DNA of 64,000 nt from Candidatus Altimarinota bacterium (GTDB taxonomy: Bacteria > Patescibacteriota > Gracilibacteria > UBA1369). Below, piece after piece: positions 24,438-57,180 of this stretch. Below the pieces are notes generated by a model. The model had not been told where the DNA came from, did not search any database, and worked only from the letters and a program-made list of their open reading frames with translations. The stretch lies in NCBI GenBank assembly GCA_963677745.1, contig OY782391.1, positions 736,001 through 800,000 on the forward strand, written 5' to 3'. The position numbers and the translations under genes were made by a program. How positions within the stretch are numbered: position 1 is the first letter of the stretch; each line of letters opens with the position of its first letter.

Positions 24438-24466
24438 TTGACAAAAAGAGGAAAGGGTATTATAAA
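24438..24466 (+). promoter_or_regulatory. Sigma70-type promoter for the 24574 gene
   Basis: TTGACA-N17-TATAAA. Confidence 0.7.
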
Positions 24467-24573
24467 GACTCCTCTCGTCTGAATTAACTGTGTGCCGCAA
24501 AGGCGCGGCAACGGTTCTGGATGAGTGCTCCTTGTTTTTGGCAAAGCAAACAGAAAGGGAAAGAGCGGGAAAA

Positions 24574-25164
24574 ATGAGAAAGATCATGTGCACGTTGGTC
24601 CCGGCAGTCTTCGTACTGCTCACGGCCCCGGCGGCACGGGCGGATACTACGTCGAAGTGGAGCGGTACAGAAGTTCTGACCAGCGCCCAGACCAATTTCT
24701 CGGTCTTCCGGGCCTCGGCCACGCACTTCTGGATCCCGAAAGCTGACGTCAACATCCTCATCAGCTACTTCGGACCCAAGCTCAAGCTGGGCGACTGGGG
24801 ATGGATCTCTCCGCAGATCGGCGCTGCCGCCAACTGGAAGAACCGGAAGGATTTCTTCGACGCCTCTCTCTGGGCATTCGCGGAACACAAGGGTTTCTCG
24901 ATCTTCCTGGAGGGCGACTACTTGTTCGCGAGGGGTCAGAAGCCCGACATCTACTCCTTCGGTAGCCTGGACTACGGCTGGTCCCGTTACAACGCCGGTA
25001 TTCATTCCGAAGGCGTGAACCAGCACTTCGGGTTCGGCCCGCATCTGGGCATCTCCAAGAATCAGGGCGAATGGAGCTGGCATGGCGAAGTGCAATACTA
25101 CGCCAAACCCGATGGCGACACCGTCGGACACGCCATCCGTATCGTAAACGGATTCACCTTCTAA
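24574..25164 (+). CDS. Secreted beta-strand-rich protein resembling a small outer-membrane beta-barrel
   Basis: Sec signal ending ARA/D, alternating hydrophobic and aromatic strands, C-terminal IRIVNGFTF. TTC/ATC/AAG/TAC codons dominate. Confidence 0.7.
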   Translation: MRKIMCTLVPAVFVLLTAPAARADTTSKWSGTEVLTSAQTNFSVFRASATHFWIPKADVNILISYFGPKLKLGDWGWISPQIGAAANWKNRKDFFDASLWAFAEHKGFSIFLEGDYLFARGQKPDIYSFGSLDYGWSRYNAGIHSEGVNQHFGFGPHLGISKNQGEWSWHGEVQYYAKPDGDTVGHAIRIVNGFTF

Positions 25165-25326
25165 ACCCTTCCCGCCTCTCCCTCCCCCCCTCGGCCAATA
25201 TCTCGGCCAACAGCCAAAAACGAGGACAGCCCCCAATACAACGGGGGCTCTTCGTCGTTTACTCTGATTGTAAGACCAGGGGGGGAAATGGTATAATAAT
25301 AGGAAATCATTTGATAAATAATTTCT

Positions 25327-25785
25327 ATGTCGAATAAACTGACCATGGGCGAGGATAGCGAAACCCCCAAAATTACCAGACAGGAAGTGGTTGACGCTCT
25401 GCGCAAAGGTAAAGCAAGCGGCGAACCCAGTCCTTACGCCGATGGCACGCCTGAGGCCGCAGCGGCTCAGGATCTTCTGGATAAATGGTATAAGCAGGTT
25501 GAAGAGGACTCCAAAGCTGTTGGAACCGAAGTAGCCAAAATTGCAGGAGTAGTGGAAATGAATACCATCCTGATAGAAGCCGGATATAACGACCCGGAAA
25601 TGCTCGGCCAGGCCATAGAATGGCTCTATAACGACCTTTGGCAAGCTCAGGACCTGGGGCCGGAAGGTGAAGATTTATATATTCAAATCGCGGACAAAAT
25701 CATGGAACTGGAAGGCCCTGACGGACAGGAATTGGACGAAGATTCTCAGGACGAATATGACAGAATAAAAGCCTCCCGTAAGTAA
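25327..25785 (+). CDS. Acidic hypothetical protein
   Basis: 152-aa ORF downstream of TGgTATAAT. Confidence 0.7.
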   Translation: MSNKLTMGEDSETPKITRQEVVDALRKGKASGEPSPYADGTPEAAAAQDLLDKWYKQVEEDSKAVGTEVAKIAGVVEMNTILIEAGYNDPEMLGQAIEWLYNDLWQAQDLGPEGEDLYIQIADKIMELEGPDGQELDEDSQDEYDRIKASRK

Positions 25786-25804
25786 TTCATTGAATGATTT
25801 CCAA

Positions 25805-38657: not shown

Positions 38658-39638
38658 TCAGGATGGGGCAAATTCGTCATGCAGAAAACCGTGCTCGCCC
38701 ACCAATGCCACTTCCCTTTCCATTTTTATCCGGAACTTTTCCCATACTGTTTTTTGGATTTCCCGGCTCAACTTGATAATGTCTTGTTGTGTTGCAGTTC
38801 CGTCGCTCATCAAAAAATTGGCGTGCTGTTCACTGATATACGCGCCACCCAGATGTTTGCCTTTAAATCCTGATTGTTCGATCAGCTGCCCGGCCGATTG
38901 CCCCACACCGATCGAATTGCGGCAGGGATTTTTGAAAAAAGATCCTGCCGATGGCCCATGGGGATGTTTTCCCAGTCGTGAAGTGATTATTGCTTTAGCT
39001 TCTTCCAGAGCGGCCTGGCCATCACCGGGAATCAGTCTCAGCCAGACTTTCAGGACAATCTCATTGTTGGTTTTGAATTTGGAATGTCTGTAGGAAAATC
39101 CGGCATAATCCGGGCCCACCTCTTTAATTTCTCCGCTTTCCGGATCCAGGACCAGGGCTTTCTCAAAAAGATGTTTGATTTCCAGTCCGTAAGCACCCGC
39201 ATTGCCCCTCACCGCTCCGCCGATTGAGCCCGGAATTCCCATCATTTTCTGCATACCGGTAAGATTGTGTTTCAGGGCATACTGAATGATCTGTGAAAGC
39301 AGGGTTCCGCTGTCGGCTTCCAGCAATTGGCCTGCCGGGCGGTAATTGTCATCGCCTTCCCCGCCGACTGCCTCAGCCGGCTCGCCGAGCGTTATTTTGC
39401 GGGCGAGATTGCGTATCACCAGCCCCCGGAAACCCTTTTCCGAAAACACAACATTACTGCCCCAGGCCAATAGAATAAAAGGCAGTTTGTCCTTGCGACA
39501 GCCCTCAATCACGGTTGGAATAGTCATAATGTCACGGGCCTCATAAAAATAGTCGGCCGGCCCGCCGATCTGAAAAGTAGTGAACTGGGATAAAGGCACA
39601 TTTTTCTGTATTCCCTCAATTTTTTCCAAAAAGGACAT
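38658..39638 (-). CDS. murB: UDP-N-acetylmuramate dehydrogenase
   Basis: TTFQIGGPAD, GSNV, GIPGSIGGAVRGNAGAYG, FSYRHS, SAGSFFKNP, HANF, EREV. Confidence 0.95.
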   Translation of the reverse strand: MSFLEKIEGIQKNVPLSQFTTFQIGGPADYFYEARDIMTIPTVIEGCRKDKLPFILLAWGSNVVFSEKGFRGLVIRNLARKITLGEPAEAVGGEGDDNYRPAGQLLEADSGTLLSQIIQYALKHNLTGMQKMMGIPGSIGGAVRGNAGAYGLEIKHLFEKALVLDPESGEIKEVGPDYAGFSYRHSKFKTNNEIVLKVWLRLIPGDGQAALEEAKAIITSRLGKHPHGPSAGSFFKNPCRNSIGVGQSAGQLIEQSGFKGKHLGGAYISEQHANFLMSDGTATQQDIIKLSREIQKTVWEKFRIKMEREVALVGEHGFLHDEFAPS

Positions 39639-41828: not shown

Positions 41829-41843
41829 CCAAAAGTTTTAGCA

Positions 41844-43666: not shown

Positions 43667-43769
43667 GGCCTCACAGTACACCCGTTCTTCAGCTTTGACA
43701 AATTCCTAAAAAATGCGATAATACTGGCCTGGCAGAGCTCAATGTCTGCCGAAATTTACCCAATCAATT

Positions 43770-45830
43770 ATGCCTCCCCAATTAAAAGAAAATTTCCTCG
43801 GCGATTATCCCGAACTGGGAAAGTTTGACCTCAAAGCCCTCAACCCGGCATTCGAGGAAACCATGTTTGATTTGGCCAAACAGGTTCCTGAATACGGCTT
43901 CTGGGAGGACGAATATATCGAACCTTTCGCCGGTAAAAAACCGGAAACCCTCATCACCCCCGCCACGCGCCGGGCCATCGATCAGGTTTTGGGGCTTTTT
44001 CTGCATAAAGAGGGCGGTAAATTGGAAGCATATTCAAATAAGGGGATCAGAAACCATATCGCCGCTTTTATCATCAGTGTACGCGCCAGAATTTGGCAAA
44101 TGTCGCCTAATCAGCGCTGGATTGATAATATGTACGGACGCCTGCAGGCCGAAGATGAACGGGTTGAAAACCACAGAAGGCTGATTGCAGCGGGTCAGGA
44201 AAATGTCTGGTATCCGAACATCACTCACCAGCCGGTTCAGAGCTGCACAAAGCAACAATTCGAGGCATCCCCCAATAACCATGCCAAAAGAGTACAGAGG
44301 ATCATGACCAATGAAACCGACAGGCTGATTATTCCGGATGAAAAGGAAGCTTTTACCCCGGAAGCGATTGGCTCTTTAATTATCGACCCTTACGGACTGA
44401 CCGATCGCCAAGTGGAGGGTTTGGGGATCAGTCTCCCCTGGACCGGGAAAAAACGCACATCCAGACTGGAAAAAATCGAATACTTCAGTACTCTGCCCCC
44501 CCGGCTCAAAACAGAGCTCTCCGCCTTAAATCCTATTGGCAAGGGTGATCCCCATGACAAATTTGGTCGTTGGCGTCTATATGGCAACGTTGAAGGTAAT
44601 GTCCTTAGTACAACCACGTCATCAGGCAAAGACAGCTATAATGTAGCCCGTTTAAAGGATGCTATCCGCGCCCGGGAACATACCCGCACCGGCTCTTTGT
44701 CAGAAACCGGTAAGATAGCCGGGGTAATCAGGAGAATTCTTGATGTCGATAAGCAGCTGCAAAAAGGTAAATGGGAACAGGTTAAGGACAACGAAAAGCT
44801 GGCCGAAGCCAAAAACACTCTTTTTCAAGCTTTCGACGCCCTCAAAAACGTTCGTAATCCGGACAAAAAGGAAGCCAGGGATTTGCTGGAAAAAGCTATG
44901 ACTTTGGAAACAACCTATACCAGAGTTATCAAAAGAAATGGAAAGCCACCGGAGACTATTGTTACAGTCAAACTGAATCCCGGCGCCAAGAGATCGCAGC
45001 TGGAAAAAGCCCTGCGCAAATTGAAAACCAGAAAAGCTCATTCCCTGCCCCGCATTTCACGTTATACCGCCAATGACCGGCAGATTCTGGAAGAAGAATT
45101 GGCCGAGCACCAGAATATTCCCTTCAATCAATTGGAGGCTTATCTGGACCGCCACTTCCGTGGCTCCAGCCCGCTTGACCACAAAAAAATGAGTCCTGCC
45201 CAGAGGGAGGGAGTTGTTTCCCGTCTCAACGAATGGCTGGAACGTTTTGTTGAGTTTCCGGCAGAAAGAAAGGCCTGGCTTGAGCCATACCGCAGTTTTG
45301 TGGATCTGATTCAGGAAGATCTCAACCAGGCAATAGAAACCGTGGATAATGAGGAAACGGCTGTCAGTGATCTTAAAACCGACCTTGCTGAATTAAAAAT
45401 TTCCCTGCGTCTGAAAAAATTCTGGGAAAGTTGGGAGCAGCTTTATGACCAGCATCTGACCCAGAAAAAATTGCCGACTTTCGTCTATATGATAAGAGAC
45501 CTGGTCTTGCTCAAGAAAGAAATTAATGATATCCCCACCACTTCTCGATCCGGGTTTATTTTTGAGACCTATCTGACCAAGATTGATGAAATGACCGCTC
45601 TCTGTCGGGAAGCCTTTGACAATTGGCATGAGCCCGACGGTAAGAAGAAAGCCAAAGTCATTCATCAGCAATTGAAAGTCAAAGCGCGCGAAGCGGATAT
45701 CGTCGCCCTGCTGAAAAAGAAAAAGGAATTTGAATATGAAGAAAAGCAGCTCGATGATATGTTCGGGCCACCGTCCGCAGATGAGGATGGGTACCTGGGG
45801 GAACTCGGGGAGGATGGCTTTGACGATTAG
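43770..45830 (+). CDS. Large helical hypothetical protein with an acidic tail
   Basis: 686-aa ORF with an upstream TTGACA..GATAAT promoter. Confidence 0.8.
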   Translation: MPPQLKENFLGDYPELGKFDLKALNPAFEETMFDLAKQVPEYGFWEDEYIEPFAGKKPETLITPATRRAIDQVLGLFLHKEGGKLEAYSNKGIRNHIAAFIISVRARIWQMSPNQRWIDNMYGRLQAEDERVENHRRLIAAGQENVWYPNITHQPVQSCTKQQFEASPNNHAKRVQRIMTNETDRLIIPDEKEAFTPEAIGSLIIDPYGLTDRQVEGLGISLPWTGKKRTSRLEKIEYFSTLPPRLKTELSALNPIGKGDPHDKFGRWRLYGNVEGNVLSTTTSSGKDSYNVARLKDAIRAREHTRTGSLSETGKIAGVIRRILDVDKQLQKGKWEQVKDNEKLAEAKNTLFQAFDALKNVRNPDKKEARDLLEKAMTLETTYTRVIKRNGKPPETIVTVKLNPGAKRSQLEKALRKLKTRKAHSLPRISRYTANDRQILEEELAEHQNIPFNQLEAYLDRHFRGSSPLDHKKMSPAQREGVVSRLNEWLERFVEFPAERKAWLEPYRSFVDLIQEDLNQAIETVDNEETAVSDLKTDLAELKISLRLKKFWESWEQLYDQHLTQKKLPTFVYMIRDLVLLKKEINDIPTTSRSGFIFETYLTKIDEMTALCREAFDNWHEPDGKKKAKVIHQQLKVKAREADIVALLKKKKEFEYEEKQLDDMFGPPSADEDGYLGELGEDGFDD

Positions 45831-46768
45831 TTCTGTGGATAATAGCCGAAAATATGACTGGTATTGTCCTTGCCGGGCAGGGATTTGATCATGGAACAGC
45901 TGGAGGTTCGCGCCCACAACTGGAAATTCCCGCTCCCGGAATCTTTCATCAATTTCGTCATCAGATAAATCACCGGGGCCGAATCTATTGCCACGGCATC
46001 AGGGGTTTCCGTGTCCAGACTGGCGGAAACCATTTTGGAAGACTCACAAAGGTCGGCGGAGGCGGGAGGGGTTTCCAGCCATTTAATGGTGCGCCAATCA
46101 TTTTGGGCGGCCAAACTTTCGGCGCTGTAATGGGTAAAATCCAGACTGGCCAGAAAAAGCGTTTTCCCCCCCGACAGTTGGTCCAATTCCTCCAGTTTGG
46201 CCGCCAGCTCATCCAATTTGATACAGGAAGTATTATTTTTTACGGTGATGGGGACTATCTTCGCTTCCGGAAAATATTTTTTCACAAAAGGATAATGGAC
46301 ATAAATGCCGTGTTCTTGGCCAAAATCTTTTGGTTCTATTGCTGCCAGGTCACTTTCATCCAATAATTTTATCGATTGCCGGTCGAGTGCCACTCCCTCC
46401 GCTCCTTTGACGCCCTCGACCTGATCGGTTGTCTGCACATAATTGAATCCGTATCCGAAATGATTGGGTGACAAAATAACCACTCTGTCGTAAGAATTTT
46501 CCCGCGCGATTTCCGTGTAAAACTTATCTATATAAGCGGACACCAGCAGATGGTGGGGCAGTATCATCCCTTTCACTTTGGCGACCGTAACCCCGTCGCC
46601 CTGGGGAAATTTTGTCTCCGTAGTGGACACGGGACTAGACAGCTGTTGACACCCTGTAGACAGCAGTAGACAACAAACCAGGAGCGCCGTCGCGGCACCC
46701 CTGGTTCTGATGATTTCCCCAAATGAATTTATCTTATTTGCCATCCGTCGGATGAAGTGCCTCCCCAT
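45827..46768 (-). CDS. Exported MEMO1/AmrB-like lipoprotein
   Basis: Lipobox-like LSTG-C, then LPHH, ILSPNHF, EHG...PF, ASLDFTHY. Start uncertain. Confidence 0.75.
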   Translation of the reverse strand: MGRHFIRRMANKINSFGEIIRTRGAATALLVCCLLLSTGCQQLSSPVSTTETKFPQGDGVTVAKVKGMILPHHLLVSAYIDKFYTEIARENSYDRVVILSPNHFGYGFNYVQTTDQVEGVKGAEGVALDRQSIKLLDESDLAAIEPKDFGQEHGIYVHYPFVKKYFPEAKIVPITVKNNTSCIKLDELAAKLEELDQLSGGKTLFLASLDFTHYSAESLAAQNDWRTIKWLETPPASADLCESSKMVSASLDTETPDAVAIDSAPVIYLMTKLMKDSGSGNFQLWARTSSCSMIKSLPGKDNTSHIFGYYPQN

Positions 46769-48585
46769 TCCACGACCGTAAATCCTTTTCTGGGTAGTGC
46801 CGTGAAGGTCTGTGCCGGCATCTCAATTTTCTGCCAGAGCGGTTGATAGTACATGAATACGCGGATTACCGTATCGGGTTTTGGTTCAATGGTCAGAGGG
46901 GCAATTTTATTGAATTCGGTCGCTCCAACAAAACTTACCAGTACATATGGTTCTGAGGTTGCCATCATTTTGGGTACCCAGAATTCCCTGAACTCGGCTG
47001 ACTCTTTTTCATTCAGTCCCAATTTGGTCAGACTGTCCTTCAGAAATCCCTCAAGGTCGGCCTTGGCCACCACCGATCCGCTGTTCATACTCAGTTGTTT
47101 AGCACTTTTGCCTTCCCAGAACAGATATTCATACTGTTTTCCGTCTGCCAGATTGGTCAGATCCCCATTGGGTTCGGCCATTACATTCCAGCCGTTTCCA
47201 TAGGCGGGCTCGGTGACGGTAAATTCATCGATTCCCACTTTTACGCTGACTGAGGAGGTCTTTTCCGGATAGAGGTAAATTACCGGCTTGCCGCATTCGG
47301 CCGGAGCCTTGAATTCGGTGGCGATTATTCCGGAATATCTTCCAAACGGATCCTGCCAGTAAACAATTGGTTTTTCGGCCAAAAATTCCTCATAAGTTTT
47401 TACTTTTGCTGCCCGGGAATCATCCGGCAGATATTGCTGCATATCCACGTACAGATTGTAGTAGTAGTTCAGAGCCCACTGTGGCTGATCTTTATCCACC
47501 AGACCGTCCAGGTCGGTTTTATCCTCAATCCGCTGATTGTTTTTTGCCACAAATATTTTTGTCCCTTTCTGAGTCTGTCCGACTTCCACCAGCTGGCTGG
47601 CATCGGTATTTTCCACGTTATAACAGGAATTGCCGATTCCGCAGCCCCCGGTCATATAATCATATCCGACTCCAAACCACCCGGATCCTGTACCGTCATT
47701 CCATTTAACCGTATCCCCGGCCTTATCCCCGACCAGATCGGGATCAAATTTATAGGTGGAAATTACACTGTCCGGTCCGATTACAAACACACAGCCGGTC
47801 ATTTCGAGAGCCGACAGATAAACCGGTCCGACTTTCGGGTCGGTGAAGGCGACTTTTCCCAGATCGACAAACACAGTTCCATCCTCATTGCCATTTTCTC
47901 TGGTCATACCGGACCGGAAATCCACGTCTTTGCTGACCAGCTGCACTGAATTGCTGCCATCCGGCAGCATGATGCTGTTGGGCAGAATTAAGGCCTTGAG
48001 CGTGAGTTCCTTGTCGGAGTTTTTCAAAACAGGATTGAGAAATTCCGGAATATAATCACTATAACTGTGATTGGTCAGATAGGTTAACTTGCCGCTTTGT
48101 TCATCCCAGGCAAATCTGGAAATTTGATCGGAAAAACAGGGGCCTTCACAGCCCTCGATCATCACCAGCAGCTTTTGGCCCTGATATGGATCGGCTTTTA
48201 ACGTCCCGACTTCATAGAAAGCCAGCATCGTTTTTACATAAGTATTTTCATCGCCGTTTTTTCCGGTATTGATGTCGGTGGTCGCCGATTCTCCCAGAAT
48301 TTTATTCATTTCTTTCAGATTGTCTCCCAGCACCTTTAACGTATCCAGTTTTTTCGGACTGGAAAAGTCCACCTGATCGTCTTTCACCACCGGAGTAACC
48401 ACCTCATTCTCGGCGGTTTCGGTTTTCGTGGAAGTCTCTTCTTTGTTCTCTCCGGTTTGAGTTTGTGTCGATTCGGTCTTGGTATCGGGTTTATTTTCTT
48501 CTCCTACGGTACAGGCGGACAGCATGGTCAAGGCCAGTAATCCGGACAGCAAAAGAGCAAGCAGCTTTTTCGAGTTCATGGACAT
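46729..48585 (-). CDS. Lipoprotein with a C-terminal KPVIYLYP-family domain
   Basis: Lipobox LSA-C. CGKPVIYLYPEK...YLFWEG...F.EFW.P...RVFM...RKGFTVVEWGG. Confidence 0.8.
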   Translation of the reverse strand: MSMNSKKLLALLLSGLLALTMLSACTVGEENKPDTKTESTQTQTGENKEETSTKTETAENEVVTPVVKDDQVDFSSPKKLDTLKVLGDNLKEMNKILGESATTDINTGKNGDENTYVKTMLAFYEVGTLKADPYQGQKLLVMIEGCEGPCFSDQISRFAWDEQSGKLTYLTNHSYSDYIPEFLNPVLKNSDKELTLKALILPNSIMLPDGSNSVQLVSKDVDFRSGMTRENGNEDGTVFVDLGKVAFTDPKVGPVYLSALEMTGCVFVIGPDSVISTYKFDPDLVGDKAGDTVKWNDGTGSGWFGVGYDYMTGGCGIGNSCYNVENTDASQLVEVGQTQKGTKIFVAKNNQRIEDKTDLDGLVDKDQPQWALNYYYNLYVDMQQYLPDDSRAAKVKTYEEFLAEKPIVYWQDPFGRYSGIIATEFKAPAECGKPVIYLYPEKTSSVSVKVGIDEFTVTEPAYGNGWNVMAEPNGDLTNLADGKQYEYLFWEGKSAKQLSMNSGSVVAKADLEGFLKDSLTKLGLNEKESAEFREFWVPKMMATSEPYVLVSFVGATEFNKIAPLTIEPKPDTVIRVFMYYQPLWQKIEMPAQTFTALPRKGFTVVEWGGTSSDGWQIR

Positions 48586-48756
48586 TTAATTATTTAATAA
48601 AATTATTTCTCGTCAAATATAACATTTCTTCGCCTAAATGTATTACAAAACAGAAGACAAAAAACAAAAATTTGATCCAATACGGTTCAAAGAGGCCTGA
48701 AAAACATTTAAATATACTGAAAAACATGCTAAAATAAAAAGATTTAACTGTATCTT

Positions 48757-50202
48757 ATGGCACCAGGTGACGGTAACCCATCAATGGATTCCCCGGTCAA
48801 GGCCGGTGATCAGGCCAGAGTGGAGGCTGTAGAAGCCGCCAAGAGATTTGAGGAACAACAGAAAAAGGCCGAAGAAGAATGGAAAAGACAGCATGTTGAG
48901 GCTGCTACTGAAAGACGTGAGGCTGGACGTGATGCTGTAAAAGATAGTGCCGCCAAAGCACGTGAAGGTATATTTACCCCTGCACCCGTAGCGTCAGCCG
49001 CTCCAACAACTGCACCTTCAACTTCTGAGACCGTCCCTGCTCCTTCGACGAGCCCGGAAGCCGCCCCTCAGGCTGCCCCGGCTCCTGCGGCGACCGCACC
49101 GGCAACTCCTGCGCCCGCTCCCGGTACAACGCCGGCCCCATCAGCAGCTCCCAGCGCTGCTCCTGCCGCCGCACCAACACCATCAGCTGCACCAACCGCC
49201 GCCCCCTCAGCAGCACCAAGTGCCGCACCTTCATCCGCTCCATCATCAAATCCCACCACGACTCCCACCAGCTCCCCTGCTGCGACACCGGGGGCGTCAA
49301 CCCCCACCTCCGGCACGGAAGCACCTCCGGTTCCCCCTCCTCCGGCGGCAGAAGAAGGCTTTGGGGGGAAAATCAAAGAATTTTTCAAAACTTTTCTTGC
49401 AGGAATGTTTGGCGGAAAGATGCCTGACTGGTTAAGTAAATTTTTTGGCGGGAAAGACACGGGCACAGCTACAGCATCAGCTTCCTCCACACCCTCCTCA
49501 ACGCCTGCAGCGTCACCTTCGGGCACATCAGAAAGTTCTCCTGAAAGCGGAAAAAGCTGGCGTGAAGTAGTCAACGCCGAAGCAGCCAGACTTGGTATCG
49601 AGCCGCCTTTTGCGCTGGCCATCGTCACCGTCGAGGCGGGCAAGGAAGGAATACAAAAAGACGGCAATCCCACCATCCGTTTTGAACCCGGATATTTCAA
49701 CAGATTACTGGCCAAAAAAGGCGTCAACGAACGTCATGCCACAGCCAACGGTTACAGTGACAGAAAAGTCGACGGAATCTCCTGTGAAGGAGGACAGGCC
49801 GCCGAGCAGGCCTGTCTGGCCAAAGCAATTTCCATCGATCCCGAGGCTGCCTATCAGTCGGTCAGTATGGGCCTGGGACAGATTATGGGTGAGTATTCAA
49901 AGTCAGCCGGCTATCCGACCGCCGAGGCCATGTATAAGGCCTTCAGTGCTTCCGGTGGTGGAGAAGCCGCCCAAGTGAAGGGCATGTTTAAAATTATCGA
50001 AGGCAGCCCCGCTCATCTCAGGGCCGCCCGCAACAAAGATTTCAGTGCTTTTGCCAACGTTTATAACGGCGCGAAAGTAGGTACTCCCAAACACAGCCAA
50101 TACATGGCGGCCCTGGAAAGAGCCTACCGCAATAATGGCGGAACCGGTGGATCCGGTACGGGTAGTCGCCCCTCCTCCGGCAGTCCCAGCGCAGTGGCGT
50201 AA
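48757..50202 (+). CDS. N-acetylmuramidase (DUF3380/PF11860-like) with a long Pro/Ala/Ser/Thr linker
   Basis: AIVTVEAG..G.P.IRFE..YF, SVSMGLGQIMG, FANVYNG. APSAAP repeats at ~49130-49250. Confidence 0.85.
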   Translation: MAPGDGNPSMDSPVKAGDQARVEAVEAAKRFEEQQKKAEEEWKRQHVEAATERREAGRDAVKDSAAKAREGIFTPAPVASAAPTTAPSTSETVPAPSTSPEAAPQAAPAPAATAPATPAPAPGTTPAPSAAPSAAPAAAPTPSAAPTAAPSAAPSAAPSSAPSSNPTTTPTSSPAATPGASTPTSGTEAPPVPPPPAAEEGFGGKIKEFFKTFLAGMFGGKMPDWLSKFFGGKDTGTATASASSTPSSTPAASPSGTSESSPESGKSWREVVNAEAARLGIEPPFALAIVTVEAGKEGIQKDGNPTIRFEPGYFNRLLAKKGVNERHATANGYSDRKVDGISCEGGQAAEQACLAKAISIDPEAAYQSVSMGLGQIMGEYSKSAGYPTAEAMYKAFSASGGGEAAQVKGMFKIIEGSPAHLRAARNKDFSAFANVYNGAKVGTPKHSQYMAALERAYRNNGGTGGSGTGSRPSSGSPSAVA

Positions 50203-50337
50203 CATCCGCCGCCACTTGATCATTTCCATTCAAATTCAGTTTCGTACCCCAATCCCAATCGCAGCCGCTGACCCCCCCGGTTAAGTTGATAATACCAAAA
50301 GCGGCAGGGGGGAAATTCCCCCTGCCGCTTATCTGCA

Positions 50338-52473
50338 CTAATCAATCAATATCGGTATGATCAGCGGCTGGCGGTCAATCTTGCTGACCACAAACTGATC
50401 CACGCTCTCGCGTATATGCAGTTTGGCCTCTTCATAATTGAATCCGGGATTGGATTTCACGAATTCGGTATAGGATTCGGCTGCTCGGCGGCAAATGCCG
50501 TTGATGATTTCACGTGATTCCTCCATATAGATAAAGCCGCGGGTTTCCACGCGAATTTCTCCGCGTACCGCCCGGGTGTTTTTATCAATGGGAAGAGTCA
50601 GTATGATTACGCCGTTCTCGGCCAGGATCTGCCTGTCCATCATAACCTGCGAACCGATGTCTCCACCGCCCATACCATCAACCAGAATATAATTGGTCTT
50701 AACTTTTTCACCGGTTACTTTGAGTTCGCCGTTGCACATTTCCAGCACGTCACCGTTTTCCACCATGATGGCCCGATTTTCCGGATGGCCCAGTTCATGC
50801 GTCATCAATTCGGCATGGGCTTTTCTCATGAAAAACTCGCCGTGTATCGGCACGAAGTATTTGGGTTTGACCAGACTGAACATCAGTTTCAGGTCTTCCT
50901 GGTGTCCATGCCCGGAAGCATGCACATCCATAATATTGTTATTGATCACCTTGGCTCCCAGTCTGACCAGGTTGTTGGTCACCCGCACCACGGCCATTTC
51001 ATTGCCGGGAATCGGTGTAGAGCTAAGTACAACGGTATCACCTTTTCCGACTTTCACCTGGGCATGTTCGTCCAGAGCCATACGGCTCAAGGCGGCCACG
51101 GGTTCACCCTGCGATCCGGTAGTCAGAATAATCGAATTGTCACCGGGATGTTTCTTGGACTTTTTAATGTCCATGATCAGTCCCTGGGGATATTTGAGAT
51201 ATCCCAGTTCAGCCGCCATCACGCAGTTATCAATCAGGCTCCTGCCGCTCAGGAAGATTTTCCTGTTATGGAGGATAGCTGCGTCGATAATCTGCTGTAT
51301 GCGGCCGATTTGCGATGAAAAAGAAGCGATGATTACTCTTCCTTTGGCCTCCTTGATTATAGTTTCCAAGGTCTGGCCGATTTTCTTTTCGGACATTGTA
51401 TAGCCGGGTCTGGTGGCATTGGTGGAATCACTGAACAGAGCGGTAATATTACGCTCGCCCAGCGCGGCTATTTTGGAAAATTCCGGAGGCATTTGTGCCC
51501 CCGCGGGACTCAGGTCGATCTTAAAGTCGCCAGTATGTACCACCGAACCTGCCGGAGTCTCAATCAAGAGGCCGGAGGCATCGGGTATGGAATGGGTAAC
51601 GCGGAAGAATGAAACTTTCATTTTTCCGAAATAAAGCACGTCGGATTTAAAATCGACCACTTTTAGATTGGCGCTTTGCATCAATCCGTGTTCCTCCAGT
51701 TGTTTGGAAATCAGTCCCATCGTCAATTTGCCGGTATAAATGGGCGGATTGCCCAGTTTATTGAGCAGATAAGGGATTCCTCCAATATGATCCAGATGTC
51801 CGTGAGTTACTACTATTCCTTTGATTTTATTAATCTTATCTTTCAGATAATTAATATCGGGAATCACATAGTCCACCCCCAGCATGTCTGCTTCGGGGAA
51901 TTGAAAACCCAGATCCACCAGGAATATTGCGTCTTCGTATTCGAAGATCATGGTGTTCTTGCCGACTTCATCCAGACCGCCTATCGGTATGATGCGGAGT
52001 TTCCCCCGGGGATCATACGTTTGTTGGGCAGGCTGCGCTTCGCTTGCCCGCCTAAGAGCACTCTGAAACTTGTGCCGCTGGTTGAAATTACCCTGAAAGG
52101 CATTTTTGAAGCCGCCCTTGCGTTTTTTTCCTGCGCCTGGCTGATTTCCACCACCACCGGGACCTTTTTGAGGAGGTCTCTGAGGCGGTTTTTGCCCGCC
52201 CGGCTGATTATTGTGGGTCTGATTGTTCTGGCCGCCGAAATTCCGCTGCATCGCCGGATTGTTCTGCCGTTGGTGGGGGTTGTTCTGCTGCCTTGGTTGG
52301 TTTTGATTGCCTTTTCTTTGTTCAGGGCGGCTATCCTTAAAAAACCCTGTCTTTTGTTCGGGAGTTGACTGTGTCGCTGGTGCTTCTGTCTTTCCTATGT
52401 TTAAAGTTTGCTTTAACCACTGGTCGAGAATATCTAGCTTCTTGCCTTTCTCCTCTTTTCTGAGATCGTCCAT
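50338..52473 (-). CDS. rnj: Ribonuclease J with an N-terminal Q/N/G/K-rich disordered extension
   Basis: GGLDEVGKN, THGHLDHIGG, HSIPD, HTGDFK, GSQGEP, HASGHG, PIHGE. Confidence 0.96.
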   Translation of the reverse strand: MDDLRKEEKGKKLDILDQWLKQTLNIGKTEAPATQSTPEQKTGFFKDSRPEQRKGNQNQPRQQNNPHQRQNNPAMQRNFGGQNNQTHNNQPGGQKPPQRPPQKGPGGGGNQPGAGKKRKGGFKNAFQGNFNQRHKFQSALRRASEAQPAQQTYDPRGKLRIIPIGGLDEVGKNTMIFEYEDAIFLVDLGFQFPEADMLGVDYVIPDINYLKDKINKIKGIVVTHGHLDHIGGIPYLLNKLGNPPIYTGKLTMGLISKQLEEHGLMQSANLKVVDFKSDVLYFGKMKVSFFRVTHSIPDASGLLIETPAGSVVHTGDFKIDLSPAGAQMPPEFSKIAALGERNITALFSDSTNATRPGYTMSEKKIGQTLETIIKEAKGRVIIASFSSQIGRIQQIIDAAILHNRKIFLSGRSLIDNCVMAAELGYLKYPQGLIMDIKKSKKHPGDNSIILTTGSQGEPVAALSRMALDEHAQVKVGKGDTVVLSSTPIPGNEMAVVRVTNNLVRLGAKVINNNIMDVHASGHGHQEDLKLMFSLVKPKYFVPIHGEFFMRKAHAELMTHELGHPENRAIMVENGDVLEMCNGELKVTGEKVKTNYILVDGMGGGDIGSQVMMDRQILAENGVIILTLPIDKNTRAVRGEIRVETRGFIYMEESREIINGICRRAAESYTEFVKSNPGFNYEEAKLHIRESVDQFVVSKIDRQPLIIPILID

Positions 52474-52658
52474 ATCGTAATTTAGTTCTATTTATTATTT
52501 ATTATGTATTTTGAAGGAACTTTACTTCAACTAATTTCATTATACCACGAAACTAGTAAAACATTCTTACATAATATTTACAAAAACACAAGGAGTGTTG
52601 TCCAAAAGCCCCTTCTCGAACGGAGTTTCCGGCTTGGTGGAGGGGATTTGGAGCTAAC

Positions 52659-52686
52659 TGGACAAAAGTAAAAAAGTTGTTATAAT
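52659..52686 (+). promoter_or_regulatory. Sigma70-type promoter for the 52765 small gene
   Basis: TGGACA-N16-TATAAT with an extended -10 TG. Confidence 0.65.
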
Positions 52687-52764
52687 GCAAACGTGTCCAA
52701 AGCTGACTAAGACAATGTCGGTCGGCTGTACGACTGATAAGAAAGGAAAAAAGGCAATAAACAG

Positions 52765-52959
52765 ATGGGGAAAATCTTCTCAAGGGCCGTCATGGGCGTC
52801 GAAGTAGGCGATCACTCCATCGTCATCAACAAAAGGTGGTATCATTTCTGGCGGCTTGCCGCCCTGAGCTACCTTCCGGCGATGGCATTCAACCTCCTGT
52901 TCGGACATCGAACTGTCTACCAGGAGAATTCGGAGGAGATCGAGATATACTTCCTCTAG
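52765..52959 (+). CDS. Small hypothetical protein with atypical codon usage
   Basis: 64 aa. TTC/ATC/GAG/GTC codons dominate. Own promoter, hairpin leader and 3' hairpin. Confidence 0.6.
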   Translation: MGKIFSRAVMGVEVGDHSIVINKRWYHFWRLAALSYLPAMAFNLLFGHRTVYQENSEEIEIYFL

Positions 52960-53030
52960 CCGCATCCTTTCACCGATTGCTCCGCGCTCGCAGTCCAAGC
53001 TGACTCGCGCGGGGCACTTCGTCCTGCCCG

Positions 53031-53834
53031 TTATTCGCTTTGCACCCCTTTCAGAAAACCCTCTCTATATAAATAACTGAGCACCCGTCCGTCTTCGCTG
53101 TACTTTTCCAGAGCTTCCCCGACGCTGATTTCCCCGGCTTTAAGCATCCGGATAATTTCATCGGCCTGCCGTTTGGAGTGTTTGTGCATTTTGTCTTCGC
53201 GCACGATCAAAGACATTCCGATGGTGAATATCACTGCCATCATCATCCAGAACACCGATCTTTCGATTTCCACGCCCAGTGTTTCAAAGGACAGTTTGAC
53301 GCCCACAAAAAACACCAGTTGATAAGCCAGATCCTCCAGTTTCGGAAATCTCTCAATGGCTTTTACAAAGTATCCAGAAAGATATCTCATCAAAATAATT
53401 CCCATTATTCCGCCAAACCACAACACCCACAACTTATCGCTGAAAGCCACGGCGGTGGTAATGCTGTCGATCGAGAATACAATGTCTGTCAGTTCCACGG
53501 CCAGCACCACGCCCCAGAAAGCTTTGGCGGTGGAGTAGGTTTTAACCTCTTTTTCTACCCCGATCCCAAAAAACATGTGCTTGATGGCCAGATAAATCAG
53601 ATATGCGCCGCCCAGCAGCTTGAACACCGTGAATTTAATCAGGTAAGTCGCAAAAATCAGGGCGATAAAACGGAAAATAAAAGCTCCCCAGATACCATAA
53701 CGCAGGGCTTTTTTTCTGGTGTTTTCCGGCAGCGGACGCACCAGAATCGCCAACACCAGGGCATTGTCCACCGACAGAATTCCTTCCAACAGGGCCAGTG
53801 TGACTACCGTCAATATGTCGTGAACATCAAACAT
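53031..53834 (-). CDS. TerC family membrane protein
   Basis: LEGILSVDNALVL, GAFIFR, ELTDIVFSIDSI, GIILMR, FPKLE. Confidence 0.92.
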   Translation of the reverse strand: MFDVHDILTVVTLALLEGILSVDNALVLAILVRPLPENTRKKALRYGIWGAFIFRFIALIFATYLIKFTVFKLLGGAYLIYLAIKHMFFGIGVEKEVKTYSTAKAFWGVVLAVELTDIVFSIDSITTAVAFSDKLWVLWFGGIMGIILMRYLSGYFVKAIERFPKLEDLAYQLVFFVGVKLSFETLGVEIERSVFWMMMAVIFTIGMSLIVREDKMHKHSKRQADEIIRMLKAGEISVGEALEKYSEDGRVLSYLYREGFLKGVQSE

Positions 53835-55360
53835 CAGTCTAATTCGGGATAAAGTCTAAATTTTTCCAGGAGGATTTTAACCTGATTTTTAATGGAAGTC
53901 TTCAGATTATTATCCAGATGGTATTTGGAAAGGGTCGGTTTACCGTCGGGACCCGGTAAGGCCTTGGTAGCAGACAGGACAGCCTGTATCATTCCGGCAA
54001 TTTCTTTCATTTCTTTTGTTCCCATGCCCAGAGTGGTCAGAGCCGGTGTTCCCAGTCGCAGTCCGCTGGTATACCAGACACCTTTCGGGTCAAAGGGAAT
54101 GGCATTGCGGTTCATTGTCAAACCGCATTCGCGCAGGGCGTCTTCGGCCTGGCGGCCGGTCAGTCCGAAACTCTCAAAGACATTGATTTGGAGAAGATGA
54201 TTGTCCGTGCCACCCGTTAATACTTTCATGCCCAGTGTCATACACTCGGCGGCCAAGGCTTGGGAATTTTCAACTATCTGCTGTGCGTACCGGCGGAATT
54301 CCGGCTGGAGAGCCAGTTTGAAGGCCACGGCCTTGGCCGCCATCATCTGCGGCAGCGGGCCGCCCAGCATGGTCGGGCACCCTTTATCCACATATTCGGA
54401 CAGCCACTTTTTGCAGAGTACTATACCGCCGCGCGGCCCGCGCAATGTCTTGTGGGTAGTCGAGGTCACAATATCCGCATAGGGAATCGGATCAAATTCG
54501 CCCTGAAAAACTTTCCCGGCCACCAGCCCGGCAAAATGTGCCATGTCCACCATCAGTACGGCGCCTACCATATCGGCGATTTTCCTCATTCTGGCAAAAT
54601 CGATCTTGCGCGGATAGGCGGAAAAACCGGCCAGCAGAATCAGTGGTTTTACTTCCAGCGCCATTTTTTCGATCACATCATAATCCAGCACTCCGGTTTC
54701 CTTTGATACCGAGTATTGGTGAATTTCAAACAGCCAGGAGGAAATATTCATGCGGTAGCCATGGGTCAGATGTCCGCCCGAACCGATATCCAGAGCCATC
54801 ATTTTCTGATGCAGCGTCTTTTCCCGCAGAGTATCCCAATCCTTGGCCACCAGCCCGCGTATATCCTTGGGGGCCATTTCCGCACCTTTGCCCTGTTTGG
54901 TCAGCATGGCACTCACCTCGTCCAAAAAACCTCGATGCACTTTGGCGGCCAAAATTGCCGTAAAGGCGACCATGTTGGCATCCGCACCGGAATGGGGCTG
55001 TACATAGGCATGCTCTGCCCCGAATAATTCAGTGGCCAGCTTAACCGCTTCTCTTTCAATAGTATCAACATTCTCGCAGCCGGCATAGAAACGTGCACCG
55101 GAAATACCTTCGGCATATTTATCTGTCATCAAATTACCCATGGCCTGTTGTACGGCCAGATTGGAATAATTTTCCGAGGCAATCAGTTTCAGATTGGATC
55201 TTTGATCCGCCAGTTCTTTCAAAATCGCCTCGGCAATCAGCGGATTGACGGCTGTCACAGTGTCCAGGGAAGAATAAAAAGACACCGCTTCACTTCTGGC
55301 GTCGGCGGGTGAACGGTCTTTCAAATAATTTTTCAGATACGATGTAGTTTGCATGTTCAA
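53834..55360 (-). CDS. glyA: Serine hydroxymethyltransferase (long form)
   Basis: LIASENY, KYAEG, QPHSG, GGHLTHG, DMAHFAG, STTHKTLRGPRGG, GTDNHL, SGLRLGTPA. Confidence 0.97.
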   Translation of the reverse strand: MNMQTTSYLKNYLKDRSPADARSEAVSFYSSLDTVTAVNPLIAEAILKELADQRSNLKLIASENYSNLAVQQAMGNLMTDKYAEGISGARFYAGCENVDTIEREAVKLATELFGAEHAYVQPHSGADANMVAFTAILAAKVHRGFLDEVSAMLTKQGKGAEMAPKDIRGLVAKDWDTLREKTLHQKMMALDIGSGGHLTHGYRMNISSWLFEIHQYSVSKETGVLDYDVIEKMALEVKPLILLAGFSAYPRKIDFARMRKIADMVGAVLMVDMAHFAGLVAGKVFQGEFDPIPYADIVTSTTHKTLRGPRGGIVLCKKWLSEYVDKGCPTMLGGPLPQMMAAKAVAFKLALQPEFRRYAQQIVENSQALAAECMTLGMKVLTGGTDNHLLQINVFESFGLTGRQAEDALRECGLTMNRNAIPFDPKGVWYTSGLRLGTPALTTLGMGTKEMKEIAGMIQAVLSATKALPGPDGKPTLSKYHLDNNLKTSIKNQVKILLEKFRLYPELD

Positions 55361-55747
55361 AATTGGTTAATAGATACCAGGTCTGATCGCTCCATGAGGG
55401 GTAAAGCAATGGGGGCAGCCATTGCCGACCGGCCAAAAAAGCCACTTTGTTGTGCAACTAAATCATACTTTATAACCTAAGAAATAAGCTGCCGCCAGAT
55501 TAACACAGGAGTGTTGTCGTGCCAAGAAAAATAGACTTGTGTAGGAGTTTGTGTTGGGAGTATATTCCCGCCTTGCCTTAAAAGGCTGATATTTGATTTT
55601 TAGAACAATTTTTAACCGTAATCAGGAGAGGGCTCTCTGCCGTTAACCAGAGATAACTCCCCGGAAGAACTACGAAGTGGCAAGTTTGGGCACTTGTAGT
55701 CAACCGGAGTGCTGCGTGAACCGGCGAGAGTTCACTCTCTGTCGGTT

Positions 55748-57055
55748 AAGGATTGGTACAAGTCAATGAAGCAGATCAATGTGATCAACTCTCTGACTGT
55801 CGCTGGACTGCTGGCCGCGATCTTCGGCGACGAAAACACGTCGCCGGTTCAGATCAAACTCCAGCGCAACAAGGTTGCGGAGAAGACAGGCCGGTGGGCA
55901 TGGAGCGTCTCGCTGCCTCTGAAAAACGGGGAAGTCGAGAACCTCTTCGAGTCGCTGATTCTGCGTTCGCTGCAGGTCACCAACGACGAGCTGCCCGCCA
56001 CTCTCACCATCACGGCGTGCGCTACGAATGTTGGGTACGAGCCCTGCTTCCAGCTCATCAACTGCACCTTCCTCAAGCGCGGCGTGCGCCGGCTGCGAAG
56101 AGCGTTCACGGAGACCATGGAACGCTGGGAAGCTGCGCGCGGTTGCGTCGCCTGTGCCTGGGAGGTGGGGGGACTTCAGATTCAGACGGAGCTCAAAGCC
56201 ATCCAGCTCAGCCAGTGTGATTCTCCCGGTCTCGTTCACAGCCTTCAGGTCAGGATGCGACCCGTCAACTCTCAGAAGGGGCTCCTGGCCATCATCAAGG
56301 CACAGAGCGAGGACGCCCTGGTGTTCTTCGATTTTGATCGCTCCCTGGCCGAGTCAGGGTTCCGTTCAGCCGTTCAGCAAAAACTGGAGGACTACCTGCG
56401 CAACCTGATCAAGAAGGGCATGGCCGAATGTCTCGACCAGATCCAGGAAGAAGTGGTCGGGTACCACCCCACAATTCTGCTGAAGACACTTTTGGAACTC
56501 GGCGAGCAGCGGGAACGGGTGGAAGAAGCTGGAATCCCCATTACGTTCAATCACCTCCTTCCCGAGTTGATTTCGCGTCTGCAGGAATACCTCGACTACA
56601 AGAAGCAGGCGGAGAAGCCGGGGATTCCCATCACCTTCAACGTCTACAGGTCCGGCGCGCTGGTCGGGAAGCACACCCTCTCCAACAAGGTCATCAAGAT
56701 CGGCCGGACTCCCGGAGATAACGTCGTCCCGCTCCAAGTCAAGGACACTTTCATTCCCGGCATCCACTCCGTGATCGAACAGAGCTGCGGGAGGATCTGC
56801 CTGATCGATCTGGCTACCGAGCTGCCGACATTCGTTAACGGCGAGCCGGTGCCGGGCAAGCGCAACCTGCACAGCGGCGACCAGATCGGGGTGGGAGACC
56901 TCTTCACCATCAAGGTGGAGTTCCAGGAAACCGCCACCGATGACGTCCCGGCCCAGGAGGCCTTCGCTGCACCTGACCCCGAGACTGCTTCGTCGCAGTT
57001 CGACAACCAGCCCGCCTAGTCACCCGCAGTCGGCCCGGCCTTTGTACCAATCCTT
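55748..57055 (+). repeat. Perfect 14-bp inverted repeat bracketing the FHA gene
   Basis: aaggattggtacaa (55748-55761) and ttgtaccaatcctt (57042-57055). Confidence 0.85.
55766..57019 (+). CDS. Protein with a C-terminal FHA domain, GC-rich
   Basis: VIKIGR...IHSVIE...LIDL...TFVNGE..LHSGDQIGVG. ATG at 55766 follows AAGGA. Confidence 0.8.
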   Translation: MKQINVINSLTVAGLLAAIFGDENTSPVQIKLQRNKVAEKTGRWAWSVSLPLKNGEVENLFESLILRSLQVTNDELPATLTITACATNVGYEPCFQLINCTFLKRGVRRLRRAFTETMERWEAARGCVACAWEVGGLQIQTELKAIQLSQCDSPGLVHSLQVRMRPVNSQKGLLAIIKAQSEDALVFFDFDRSLAESGFRSAVQQKLEDYLRNLIKKGMAECLDQIQEEVVGYHPTILLKTLLELGEQRERVEEAGIPITFNHLLPELISRLQEYLDYKKQAEKPGIPITFNVYRSGALVGKHTLSNKVIKIGRTPGDNVVPLQVKDTFIPGIHSVIEQSCGRICLIDLATELPTFVNGEPVPGKRNLHSGDQIGVGDLFTIKVEFQETATDDVPAQEAFAAPDPETASSQFDNQPA

Positions 57056-57180
57056 TTGCTCTTCGTGAGCGTCTGGTCTGCCAACCAGAAAATCTTCGAC
57101 AGGGGGAAAATAATCACCGGCCGGGCAGGGTCGGTGATTTTCAATATCCGTTGATTCTAAAATATTTCCCAGCCGGAAGC

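Follow-up and report, generated by a model that had tools for sequence, protein, structure and literature searches.

Four single-gene cassettes in the genome of a Candidatus Altimarinota bacterium (Patescibacteriota; Gracilibacteria) belong to a class of genes that our analysis supports as GC-rich, Shine–Dalgarno (SD)-led, stand-alone units in an otherwise SD-poor genome. We studied a stretch of 64,000 nucleotides (hereafter the window; positions 736001–800000 of contig OY782391.1, assembly GCA_963677745.1) within this single-contig genome of 1,335,835 bp and 47.4% GC. The four genes are called A (24574–25164, + strand), B (39760–40443, −), C (52765–52959, +) and D (55766–57019, +) and are located by window position. 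Other class genes are named by their position on the whole contig, G000:C1 (605641, 805880, 850296, 913698, 914906, 969279 and 1214874), where G000 denotes this genome. We tentatively read A–D as members of a lineage-maintained, SD-dependent class of roughly 20 units, about one-third of which may be partly gated in cis by 12–15-bp pairing between the 5′ and 3′ untranslated regions (UTRs). The novelty lies in finding, within a Patescibacteria lineage otherwise poor in SDs, a class defined by composition and SD use in which complementarity of transcript ends is enriched and co-varies.

For comparison we used a sister species of the same genus (G002, in which locus L022 carries A), a further close relative (G001), 400 kb from another genus of the same family (G020), two further loci with A homologues (L023 and L024) and two distant genomes (G268 and G249). 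Every genome-wide figure given below rests on a crude call of 1128 genes made with a simple, codon-model picker of open reading frames (ORFs).

A GC-rich, SD-led gene class in an SD-poor genome

The composition of the four genes is unusual. Their G+C content at third codon positions (GC3) is 0.79, 0.71, 0.73 and 0.79 for A, B, C and D, where the genome histogram peaks at 0.50–0.60, and an index of TTC, ATC, AAG, TAC and GAG use reaches 0.85, 0.63, 0.80 and 0.75 against a genome median of 0.35. On GC3 and codon index they lie at percentiles 98.0–99.6 of all called genes. A first-pass annotation of the window had remarked on this codon bias and named B as its weakest case; the genome-wide comparison bears out both points and places A–D beyond the normal spread, in a class of about 23 genes (codon index and GC3 each at least 0.6). 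Composition of the outliers is shifted at every codon position. We rejected translational selection for 'optimal' codons, as the outliers favour G-ending codons that high-scoring genes avoid. The fraction of G-ending Lys, Glu and Gln codons is 0.68 in outliers versus 0.31–0.33 in the ribosomal-protein cluster and the 40 best-scoring genes, two groups that prefer C over T at two-fold pyrimidine sites. The genome encodes tRNAs for both the A- and G-ending codons of these three amino acids.

Class membership also predicts the presence of an SD. The 3′ tail of 16S rRNA is canonical (GGAUUACCUCCUUUCU) and matches the SDs of the class. Even so, start sites across the genome lack any SD signal at a set position upstream, and G falls to about 10% from −15 to −1. 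Calling an SD wherever the duplex with the 16S tail at the first start reached −6 kcal/mol or lower, we found one in 16 of 26 outliers (61.5%; the set used for this test) versus 2.9% of the 1102 other genes (Mann–Whitney p = 1e-6). Duplexes of this strength occur at 8% of random genome positions. Within the coding sequences (CDSs) of 23 outliers, randomly placed windows contain one in 17.6% of cases, compared with 69.6% at the first starts of the same genes. The SD fraction climbs with GC3, from 2–4% in bins between 0.35 and 0.65 to 21% at 0.65–0.70 and 58% above 0.70; it is 6% in AT-rich outliers (GC3 ≤0.35). The pattern recurs in G020, where 5 of 8 GC3 outliers carry an SD versus 5.8% of 313 other genes. 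Moreover, an SD of −7 kcal/mol or stronger is kept in all 15 orthologous or homologous sequences tested, whose GC3 spans 0.64–0.86. The distinction first drawn between purine-rich SD tracts in front of A–D and SD-less neighbouring genes thus holds, and it applies to the outlier class at large.

Class products evolve fast and are restricted to the lineage; many are of an exported or surface type, and some contain MopE-type Cys repeats. Lipobox lipoproteins, Gly-rich linkers and Sec-type signal peptides (on A, 850296 and others) were read by eye, and NCBIfam returned nothing for 8 of 10 class proteins. A MYXO-CTERM-type tail suspected on 850296 was discarded when no NCBIfam model matched it. A study of Candidatus Peribacter riflensis describes extracellular proteins that are rich in Cys, differ between strains and weakly resemble Myxococcus repeats (PMC4736985); the diderm flavour of several class members can therefore be regarded as a known trait of the lineage.

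Possible pairing between the ends of class transcripts

To compare transcript ends, we took the best ungapped leader–trailer helix (G–C 3, A–U 2, G–U 1, mismatch −4) as a helix score and used non-cognate leader–trailer pairs within the class as the control, so that composition was held alike. RNA.duplexfold on long windows was dropped, as it over-extends and is confounded by GC. The test took two forms. A narrow form set the translation initiation region (−24 to +3) against the first 70 nt after the stop codon, and a wide form set the leader (−70 to +3) against the trailer (0 to +110).

In the wide form, 7 of 24 class genes, A and D among them, paired better than controls at p ≤ 0.05 (552 non-cognate pairs). 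A helix score of at least 28 was reached by 7 of 23 outliers, versus 1.6% of 1105 other genes and 3.9% of the 152 other genes whose intergenic gaps both measure at least 80 nt. The narrow form singled out D (p < 0.001; A 0.19, B 0.19, C 0.36). Of the SD complements just after the stop codon, which the first-pass annotation had proposed for three of the four genes, only that of D therefore stands; A, B and C are at background. No leader or trailer sequence similarity was found between cassettes either, and the notion of one RNA architecture, taken as a shared motif, is unsupported on both counts.

Other elements of that proposed architecture survived in part. Trailers are more stable than shuffled sequences, with z-scores of −4.48 for A (0 of 200 shuffles equally stable), −2.40 for B, −2.0 for C and −2.98 for D; leaders, which had likewise been called hairpin-rich, are so only mildly (−1.43, −1.0, −1.9 and −2.05). 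Promoter-like sites precede B and C by scan and A by eye, and none was found for D. As to the claim that each gene is monocistronic, the strand on which the adjacent genes lie sets A, C and D apart as separate units.

Compensatory changes were sought in relatives and found for several genes. Both arms of 850296 differ between G000 and G002 yet still match, with 10 + 6 bp and a bulge in G002, where the SD is now included. For gene 1214874, G002 has a single compensatory change together with a single mismatch, and G001 forms a new helix of 11–14 bp. The 605641 core, GCGAGG/CCUCGC, is kept in relatives, and A provides a further case, described below. Several arms, such as those of 850296, and the post-stop tract of A are low-complexity purine or pyrimidine tracts; the helices of A, D, 914906 and 1214874 have arms that are not of this kind. 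From such patterns we infer that the ends may pair in vivo.

Arms that sit between promoter and terminator could also act at the level of DNA, as inverted repeats that allow a CDS to invert relative to its promoter and so produce phase variation of surface proteins. Indeed, the arms flank whole CDSs of surface-type proteins, those of D are perfectly Watson–Crick and evolve in concert, and sense and antisense strands score alike (see below), as DNA repeats predict. However, there is no arm consensus between loci, and one site-specific invertase therefore cannot serve them all; no recombinase occurs among ten neighbouring proteins scanned; and arms of 12–15 bp are short for homologous recombination. 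The 5′ arms of A and 1214874 sit within a structured leader, a good distance upstream of the SD, and G·U-type mismatches and bulges are tolerated. Among assembled contigs from four runs of two studies covering 39000–58000, one spans the entire region and no strand-changing joint appears at B, C or D; because contigs drop rare variants, this counts neither for nor against inversion or expression. We consider inversion highly improbable. Our preference for pairing at the RNA level rests, indirectly, on the placement of the arms between promoter and terminator and on the lack of a shared consensus.

Two further observations concern transcript ends elsewhere. The highest helix score in the genome (36) belongs to a 768-aa gene of ordinary composition at G000:C1:611315–613621. 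In addition, the trailers at 914607–914773, 915650–915860 and 969129–969281 share an element of ~50–110 nt at 82–90% identity. It accompanies the paralogues 913698 and 914906 as well as 969279 and includes the palindromic arm GTCGAAG(A/T)TCAA; what looks like pairing specific to each gene may here reflect a small repeated element.

Cassettes D and A

Cassette D contains the longest run of complementarity of all genes tested. Its 5′ arm (AAGGAUUGGUACAAG, 55748–55762) takes in the SD and reaches −4 of the AUG; its 3′ arm (UUUGUACCAAUCCUU, 57041–57055) lies at +21 after the stop codon. Together they form 15 bp with 14 perfect nt, where other genes reach at most 13 (p = 0.004 in the wide, non-cognate control). 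The helix is identical in G002 despite its different spacing from the stop codon, +63 in that species. Conservation of D is also highest at its ends: the leader (160 nt) is ~95% and the trailer ~93% identical to G002, compared with 68–87% per 100-column block in the CDS. Within the upstream non-coding region and leader (55361–55765), the ~95% identity covers 55605–55765. A promoter scan found no sigma-70 site upstream of D, and Rfam gave two sub-threshold chance matches. A terminator-like hairpin followed by UUUUC (57113–57143) is conserved in G002.

Gene D encodes 417 aa with a C-terminal FHA domain (Pfam FHA, 1.3e-7). The protein is 61% identical in G002, has two homologue clusters among 5.8e9 proteins (63 and 60% identity) and was found at full length in 2 of the 205 genomes searched within the order. 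Among NCBIfam models, the one nearest to its FHA domain is GltG, a gliding-motility protein of Myxococcus; the match is to the FHA portion of that model (E 1e-14) and falls far short of the family cut-off. The cassette as a unit (55340–57193, ~1.85 kb) is absent from G001, in which the flanking SHMT and polysaccharide-synthesis genes lie 53 bp apart; no target-site duplication was seen at this empty site.

Cassette A is organized differently. A promoter-like site (24439–24473, TTGACA-17-TATAAA) was identified by eye, the scanner, which needs T at position 6, having left it unlisted. Homology with the sister species starts exactly at the −35 element, and L023 and L024 carry TTGACA/TTGACG-16-TATTAT/TATAAT at the aligned place. 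The leader (24474–24573) contains a long 5′ stem-loop (CUCUCGUC... paired with ...GAUGAG) and a purine-rich SD tract with a duplex energy of −8.6 to −9.1 kcal/mol. RNAalifold on four homologues gives this stem-loop 25 pairs, 4 of them changed on both sides. Rfam found no match on the cassette.

The long-range helix of A joins a 5′ arm upstream of the SD tract (TCCTTGTTTTTGGC, also written UCCUUGUUUUUGGC; 24529–24542) to a 3′ arm (GCCAAAAACGAGGA, 25213–25226) that abuts the terminator-like hairpin (25228–25260; AGCCCCC..GGGGGCU with a U-rich tail, identical in the sister species) on its upstream side. It comprises 14 bp with one G·U pair (p = 0.011 versus 552 non-cognate pairs). At L022 the helix is kept, with a compensatory G–C to A–U change on both sides. 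At L023 it is lengthened to 19–25 bp with G·U pairs, and at L024 another, bipartite pairing takes its place. These pair statements come from reading the sequences together with helix scores, and a MAFFT alignment placed the L023 3′ arm in another register. Duplex energies across this family were matched by 10, 10, 0 and 8 of 500 shuffles. When the sequence is folded singly, the 5′ arm can instead form local pairs with the SD tract, which would make the 3′ arm a possible activator and not a lock.

Gene A encodes a 196-aa protein that is predicted to be an outer-membrane-type, porin-like barrel. It shares with KdgM and NanC a predicted 12-strand beta-barrel, a signal peptide and a C-terminal Phe. 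The AlphaFold model has a pLDDT of 91.6, with TM-scores of 0.55 and 0.62 to KdgM (4pr7 and 4fqe) and about 0.50 to NanC, at 10–18% identity in the fold alignments. Unlike those porins, A has no Pfam match at E ≤ 0.1 (PF06178 included) and no NCBIfam match; in the Atlas, KdgM clusters lie beside A by features only (0.93). The group to which the organism belongs is, moreover, generally regarded as monoderm, without an outer membrane.

A barrel of this type would be unusable in a monoderm's own envelope. Together with codon usage and SDs suited to a typical GC-rich bacterium, and with structured transcript ends, it favours the proposal of the first-pass annotation that the cassettes yield end-protected transcripts tuned to a GC-rich, SD-using diderm host, in which they are delivered and translated. 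We found no support for this idea. Nothing points to a route of RNA export, the organism's own 16S tail matches the SDs, and its own tRNAs read the G-ending Lys, Glu and Gln codons. The promoters are conserved and of the organism's sigma-70 type. The Sec-type signal peptides and lipoboxes, as read by eye, imply export as protein by the producer. Host-directed transcripts thus seem to us barely credible.

Just downstream of A, a gene at 25327–25785 encodes 152 aa with no Pfam family and 86% identity in G002. Its leader–trailer helix scores 31, and it has a separate promoter-like site, TTGTAA-18-TATAAT.

Cassettes B and C

Cassette B has a promoter-like site at 40512–40539 (TTGACT-16-TAAAAT, 10/12), and TTGACA...TAAAAT lies upstream of its orthologues in G002 and G001. 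The gene is a 227-aa ORFan with no Pfam family. Its orthologues are syntenic at 34% (G002) and 29% (G001) identity, and one homologue cluster besides itself, at 54%, appears among the 5.8e9 proteins. A leader element (ACCUUUCA, 40458–40465) can pair with the stop-codon region (UGAGAGGU, 39755–39762) or locally with the SD. The leader–stop pairing amounts to 8 bp by eye (p = 0.15–0.19). In G002 the same places hold 11 perfect bp (ACCTTTAACTG/CAGTTAAAGGT), and in G001 only 5 bp. The trailer (39640–39759) forms a long GGCCGG..CCGGCC hairpin with a U-run upstream of murB, whose start we re-read from conservation at ~39633, leaving B ~125 nt upstream of murB.

The promoter-like site of cassette C is at 52659–52686 (TGGACA-16-TATAAT with TG, 11/12). 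The 64-aa product has one hydrophobic stretch and no Pfam family. A homologue of 63 aa occupies the syntenic place in G001 (45% identity, GC3 0.81, SD AGGAGGG), and no counterpart was found in G002. After the stop codon, UCCUUUC (52965–52971) is the complement of GAAAGGA at 52741–52747; 7-mer runs of this kind are at background, being found at this length or above in 35% of genes. In G001, UCCUCC faces GGAGGG.

Origin and proposed maintenance of the class

Several observations weigh against a maintained class gated by end pairing. In the narrow test, 4 of 39 class and orthologue sequences pass at 0.05, which is background. None of seven GC3 outliers in G020 reaches a score of 28 (best 27, 26 and 25; a small sample). 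The antisense strand scores on average 24.72 versus 24.56 for sense, no difference, and wobble pairs therefore do not show selection on RNA. The 805880 helix is confined to G000 and kept in neither G002 nor G001, and no helix was found in the distant A homologues of G268 and G249. End pairing is at background in C (p = 0.7 in the wide test) and weak in B, leader stability exceeds that of shuffles only mildly, and A, B and D have SDs of −6.7 to −9.1 kcal/mol, modest values beside that of rpsU, described below. Cassettes have also been gained or lost among close relatives, as with D in G001 and C in G002, and at L024 A lies in another genomic neighbourhood. This turnover fits mobility or foreign origin. 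Finally, synonymous changes in A run 25 from GC to AT and 3 from AT to GC, the direction expected from amelioration, though the L023 outgroup (GC3 0.86, near saturation) biases the count and alone predicts ~6:1.

The first few of these points would be expected if the SD- and GC-defined class were real and its end complementarity incidental, a product of purine-rich leaders facing pyrimidine- or GC-rich trailers, with D as the sole true case. The background result of the narrow test, the failure of the helix enrichment to replicate in G020, the equally high antisense baseline and the low-complexity tracts in 850296 and after the A stop codon all agree with it. Even so, the composition-matched control leaves 7 of 24 genes at p ≤ 0.05, four genes pair through arms that are not low-complexity, and relatives keep the pairing by two-sided changes or a new helix. 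We judge purely incidental complementarity rather unlikely.

The remaining points bear on where the cassettes came from. They may be ordinary, horizontally acquired single-gene islands from GC-rich, SD-using bacteria, possibly the host, with SD and GC as relics and helices as donor features or chance. As in genomic islands, GC3 and codon use are atypical, presence is patchy, units have their own promoter and terminator, and single genes are inserted between conserved neighbours. The composition shift at all codon positions, toward G-ending codons that highly expressed genes avoid, is in keeping with such an origin. So are the clean empty site for D, the occurrence of A in 3 of 205 and of full-length D in 2 of 205 genomes of the order, the altered context of A at L024, its GC-to-AT excess (biased by the outgroup), the missing helix enrichment in G020 and protein types that are odd for a monoderm (the barrel, MopE-type Cys repeats and lipobox lipoproteins identified by eye).

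In contrast to islands, the cassettes show no integrase, no tRNA-site duplication and no donor, and their composition and SDs persist in orthologues and distant homologues. As the first-pass annotation had noted, there is no integrase or transposase nearby; scanning ten neighbouring proteins gave the same outcome, with no recombinase. No donor-type homologue of A, B or D was found among the 5.8e9 proteins, although these libraries carry little taxonomy and unnamed metagenomic donors are possible. A, B and D had no plasmid matches and A no phage matches. Homologues whose DNA could be read sit in low-GC, Peribacteria-like or unassigned surroundings. Relatives resembling Peribacter, which are GC-rich (58.5%; PMC4736985), were considered as donors and rejected, given the rarity of A and D across the order. 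Cys-rich, strain-variable extracellular proteins are already described from Peribacteria (PMC4736985).

Orthologues speak further against recent capture. In G002, A, B and D keep the same order and similar spacing, with identities of 85, 34 and 61% versus 82–92% for their neighbours; class proteins overall range over 28–85% where neighbours are at 82–92%. Orthologues in two to three species retain SD and high GC3 though leaders have diverged. The UTRs of D are more conserved than its CDS, and helices covary or are replaced rather than decayed.

The A family extends this picture. It has four homologue clusters among the 5.8e9 proteins (85, 62, 60 and 51% identity), and its profile finds 116 representatives at E ≤ 1e-3, one of them named from Candidatus Uhrbacteria. 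In seven of the eight genomes or contigs whose DNA was read, distant Patescibacteria included, the gene stands out as an SD-bearing GC island. Its GC3 tends upward with the GC of the flanks (0.505 at 0.31, 0.635 at ~0.36 and 0.78–0.88 at 0.44–0.49). Four-fold divergence between deeper pairs is near saturation (0.67–0.75), and GC3 is still 0.25–0.3 above genome level. A lasting pressure towards GC-ending codons in these genes explains this pattern more easily than recurrent recent import does.

That the cassettes are simple acquired islands is thus unlikely, though by no means implausible, and the conservative reading of recent capture from a host is weakened; an old foreign origin is conceivable. 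The cassettes pre-date the species split, and nothing found here marks them as recent islands. Even if the island explanation were true, the codon and SD outliers would be old, retained and syntenic rather than recent contamination.

An extended SD on rpsU and possible 16S-tail occlusion

In Bacteroidia, translation reportedly proceeds with a 16S tail occluded by bS21, bS18 and bS6, and genes are SD-less. SD-independent translation combined with an rpsU-specific extended SD is said to have been described for Bacteroidia and Chlorobia. The genome studied here resembles this arrangement in three ways: its anti-SD is canonical, SDs are depleted from upstream regions that are rich in A and poor in G, and rpsU has an extended SD. 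The rpsU gene (bS21; G000:C1:157606–157812, −) is preceded by GAAAGGGGGUAAU, at −16.0 kcal/mol the strongest SD among non-outlier genes. Across the 28 relatives of the order (Peribacterales) with a bS21 match, the rpsU SD is at −11.5 kcal/mol or lower in 25 and at −16 or lower in 19.

The bS21 gene itself (G000:C1:157654–157800) has a match in 28 of 41 relatives; within the family, 22 of the 24 other genomes carry one. A survey lists Peregrinibacteria as often without bS21 (PMC9297842); a small, divergent bS21 gene may have been missed by annotation.

The extended rpsU SD across the order suggests that the 16S tail is occluded here too, and that SD-led messages may depend mainly on a ribosome subpopulation in which the normally occluded tail is available. 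For Bacteroidia, an occluded tail and translation of rpsU by bS21-free ribosomes are described, and in Flavobacterium a response to bS21 loss only with an extended SD (PMC9976891). Combined with the weaker SDs of A, B and D, that last result counts against a simple transfer of the Bacteroidia model. The systems differ in other ways as well. In F. johnsoniae, rpsU is the sole obvious SD gene, whereas some 20 further SD genes exist here, and the phylum is Patescibacteria, for which the likeness in occlusion is read from a sequence signature. A search of titles and abstracts found, for this radiation, no report of translation poor in SDs or of an extended SD on rpsU, though supplementary tables may hold relevant data.

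Known systems and a possible mechanism

The first-pass annotation had likened the cassettes to hok/sok-type mRNAs, in which 5′–3′ fold-back keeps the full-length message translationally inert until it is processed. Complementarity of the two ends is present at sequence level in D, whose 3′ UTR can pair with the SD-to-start region, and in A, whose conserved helix is not the one then named. By product size, these are not hok-type loci: the proteins of A, B and D measure 196, 227 and 417 aa, and only C (64 aa) is toxin-sized, without significant pairing. We saw no hok-type antisense RNA or mok-like overlapping frame, by an Rfam scan of the window and with no dedicated search, and nothing that would place the cassettes on a plasmid.

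Closer parallels come from two single genes. In the icaR mRNA of Staphylococcus aureus, the 3′ UTR pairs with the SD through a short UCCCCUG motif, blocks initiation and feeds RNase III (PMC3868564). D has the equivalent in 15 bp that run from the SD as far as −4 of the AUG; RNase III is encoded in the genome. The cassette differs from icaR in that its arm is a unique 15-mer, that several unrelated genes of one class in an SD-poor organism are involved and that D is known from sequence. Complementarity of the icaR type, between 3′ UTR and SD, also occurs in 605641 and 805880 in G000. For hbs of Bacillus subtilis, whose strong SD follows a structured leader, a 14-bp helix between 5′ and 3′ UTRs is reported to modulate cleavage of that leader by RNase Y (PMC5737220). 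A likewise joins a structured leader upstream of a good SD to its 3′ UTR by 14 bp, and RNase Y and RNase J are both encoded. As a difference from hbs, the 5′ arm of A, seen so far as sequence, can also pair locally with the SD. A recent preprint on B. subtilis finds that pyrimidine-rich segments resembling an anti-SD, located hundreds of nucleotides from the ribosome-binding site, can pair with it in vivo, reducing translation and hastening mRNA decay (PMC12697547). Native B. subtilis genes are depleted of such sequences, which are apparently retained here in the 3′ UTRs of the class.

Because the pairing sites and RNase set match these precedents, we read D as icaR-like and A as hbs-like. Once a transcript is complete, its 3′ segment would fold back on the leader. 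In D, the fold-back would cover the SD and start region, so that initiation might be blocked, a substrate for RNase III formed, or both. Pairing upstream of the SD in A could instead modulate attack by RNase Y or RNase J, or free the SD from a local pyrimidine tract. Protein output would then depend on refolding or processing of the RNA. Composition, SD enrichment, conservation and complementarity are observed here; pairing in vivo, the sign of its effect and any link to the ribosome are inferred. An explanation through CsrA and GGA motifs was dropped, as CsrA was not found in the genome.

A more elaborate arrangement can be imagined, which we regard as doubtful. Translation in Peribacterales would have two tiers: a bulk of SD-less mRNAs read by ribosomes with an occluded 16S tail, and a GC-rich, SD-led and often end-clamped regulon of about 20 genes read only by bS21-free ribosomes or after processing opens the clamp. 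The second tier would supply fast-evolving surface and secreted proteins, including a porin able to work only in the envelope of a diderm partner.

Other features of the window and genome

Housekeeping functions are encoded around the cassettes (GNAT, MurB, RNase J, TerC, SHMT, a polysaccharide-synthesis protein and a muramidase). At gathering thresholds, Rfam reports three tRNAs in the whole window and nothing else. A very long ORF (15324–22565; 2413 aa, TTG start) lies directly upstream of the region studied. At 48757–50202, a protein with an N-acetylmuramidase domain (Pfam PF11860) has a low codon score and falls outside the outlier set; the stretch around this gene is locally GC-rich (0.58 over 49001–50000). 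Elsewhere, two AT-rich islands (G000:C1:240052–246525 and 301401–309960) have gene GC of 0.30–0.41, GC3 of 0.23–0.35 and an SD in 1 of 12 genes. Two adjacent genes in the first of them (240052–240759 and 240942–241514) have strong 5′–3′ helices, with scores of 33 and 35.

Implications

Pairing between 5′ and 3′ UTRs is known in bacteria from single genes such as icaR, hbs and hok, and its enrichment across a class would make it a regulon-level device. The Bacteroidia-like signature across an order of Patescibacteria suggests that 16S-tail occlusion is convergent or much more widespread. If the two-tier system were true, it would amount to a post-transcriptional switch for the host-contact proteins of an episymbiont. 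The class thus offers a handle on genes that an uncultured episymbiont regulates separately, among them fast-evolving surface proteins and a predicted porin-like barrel.

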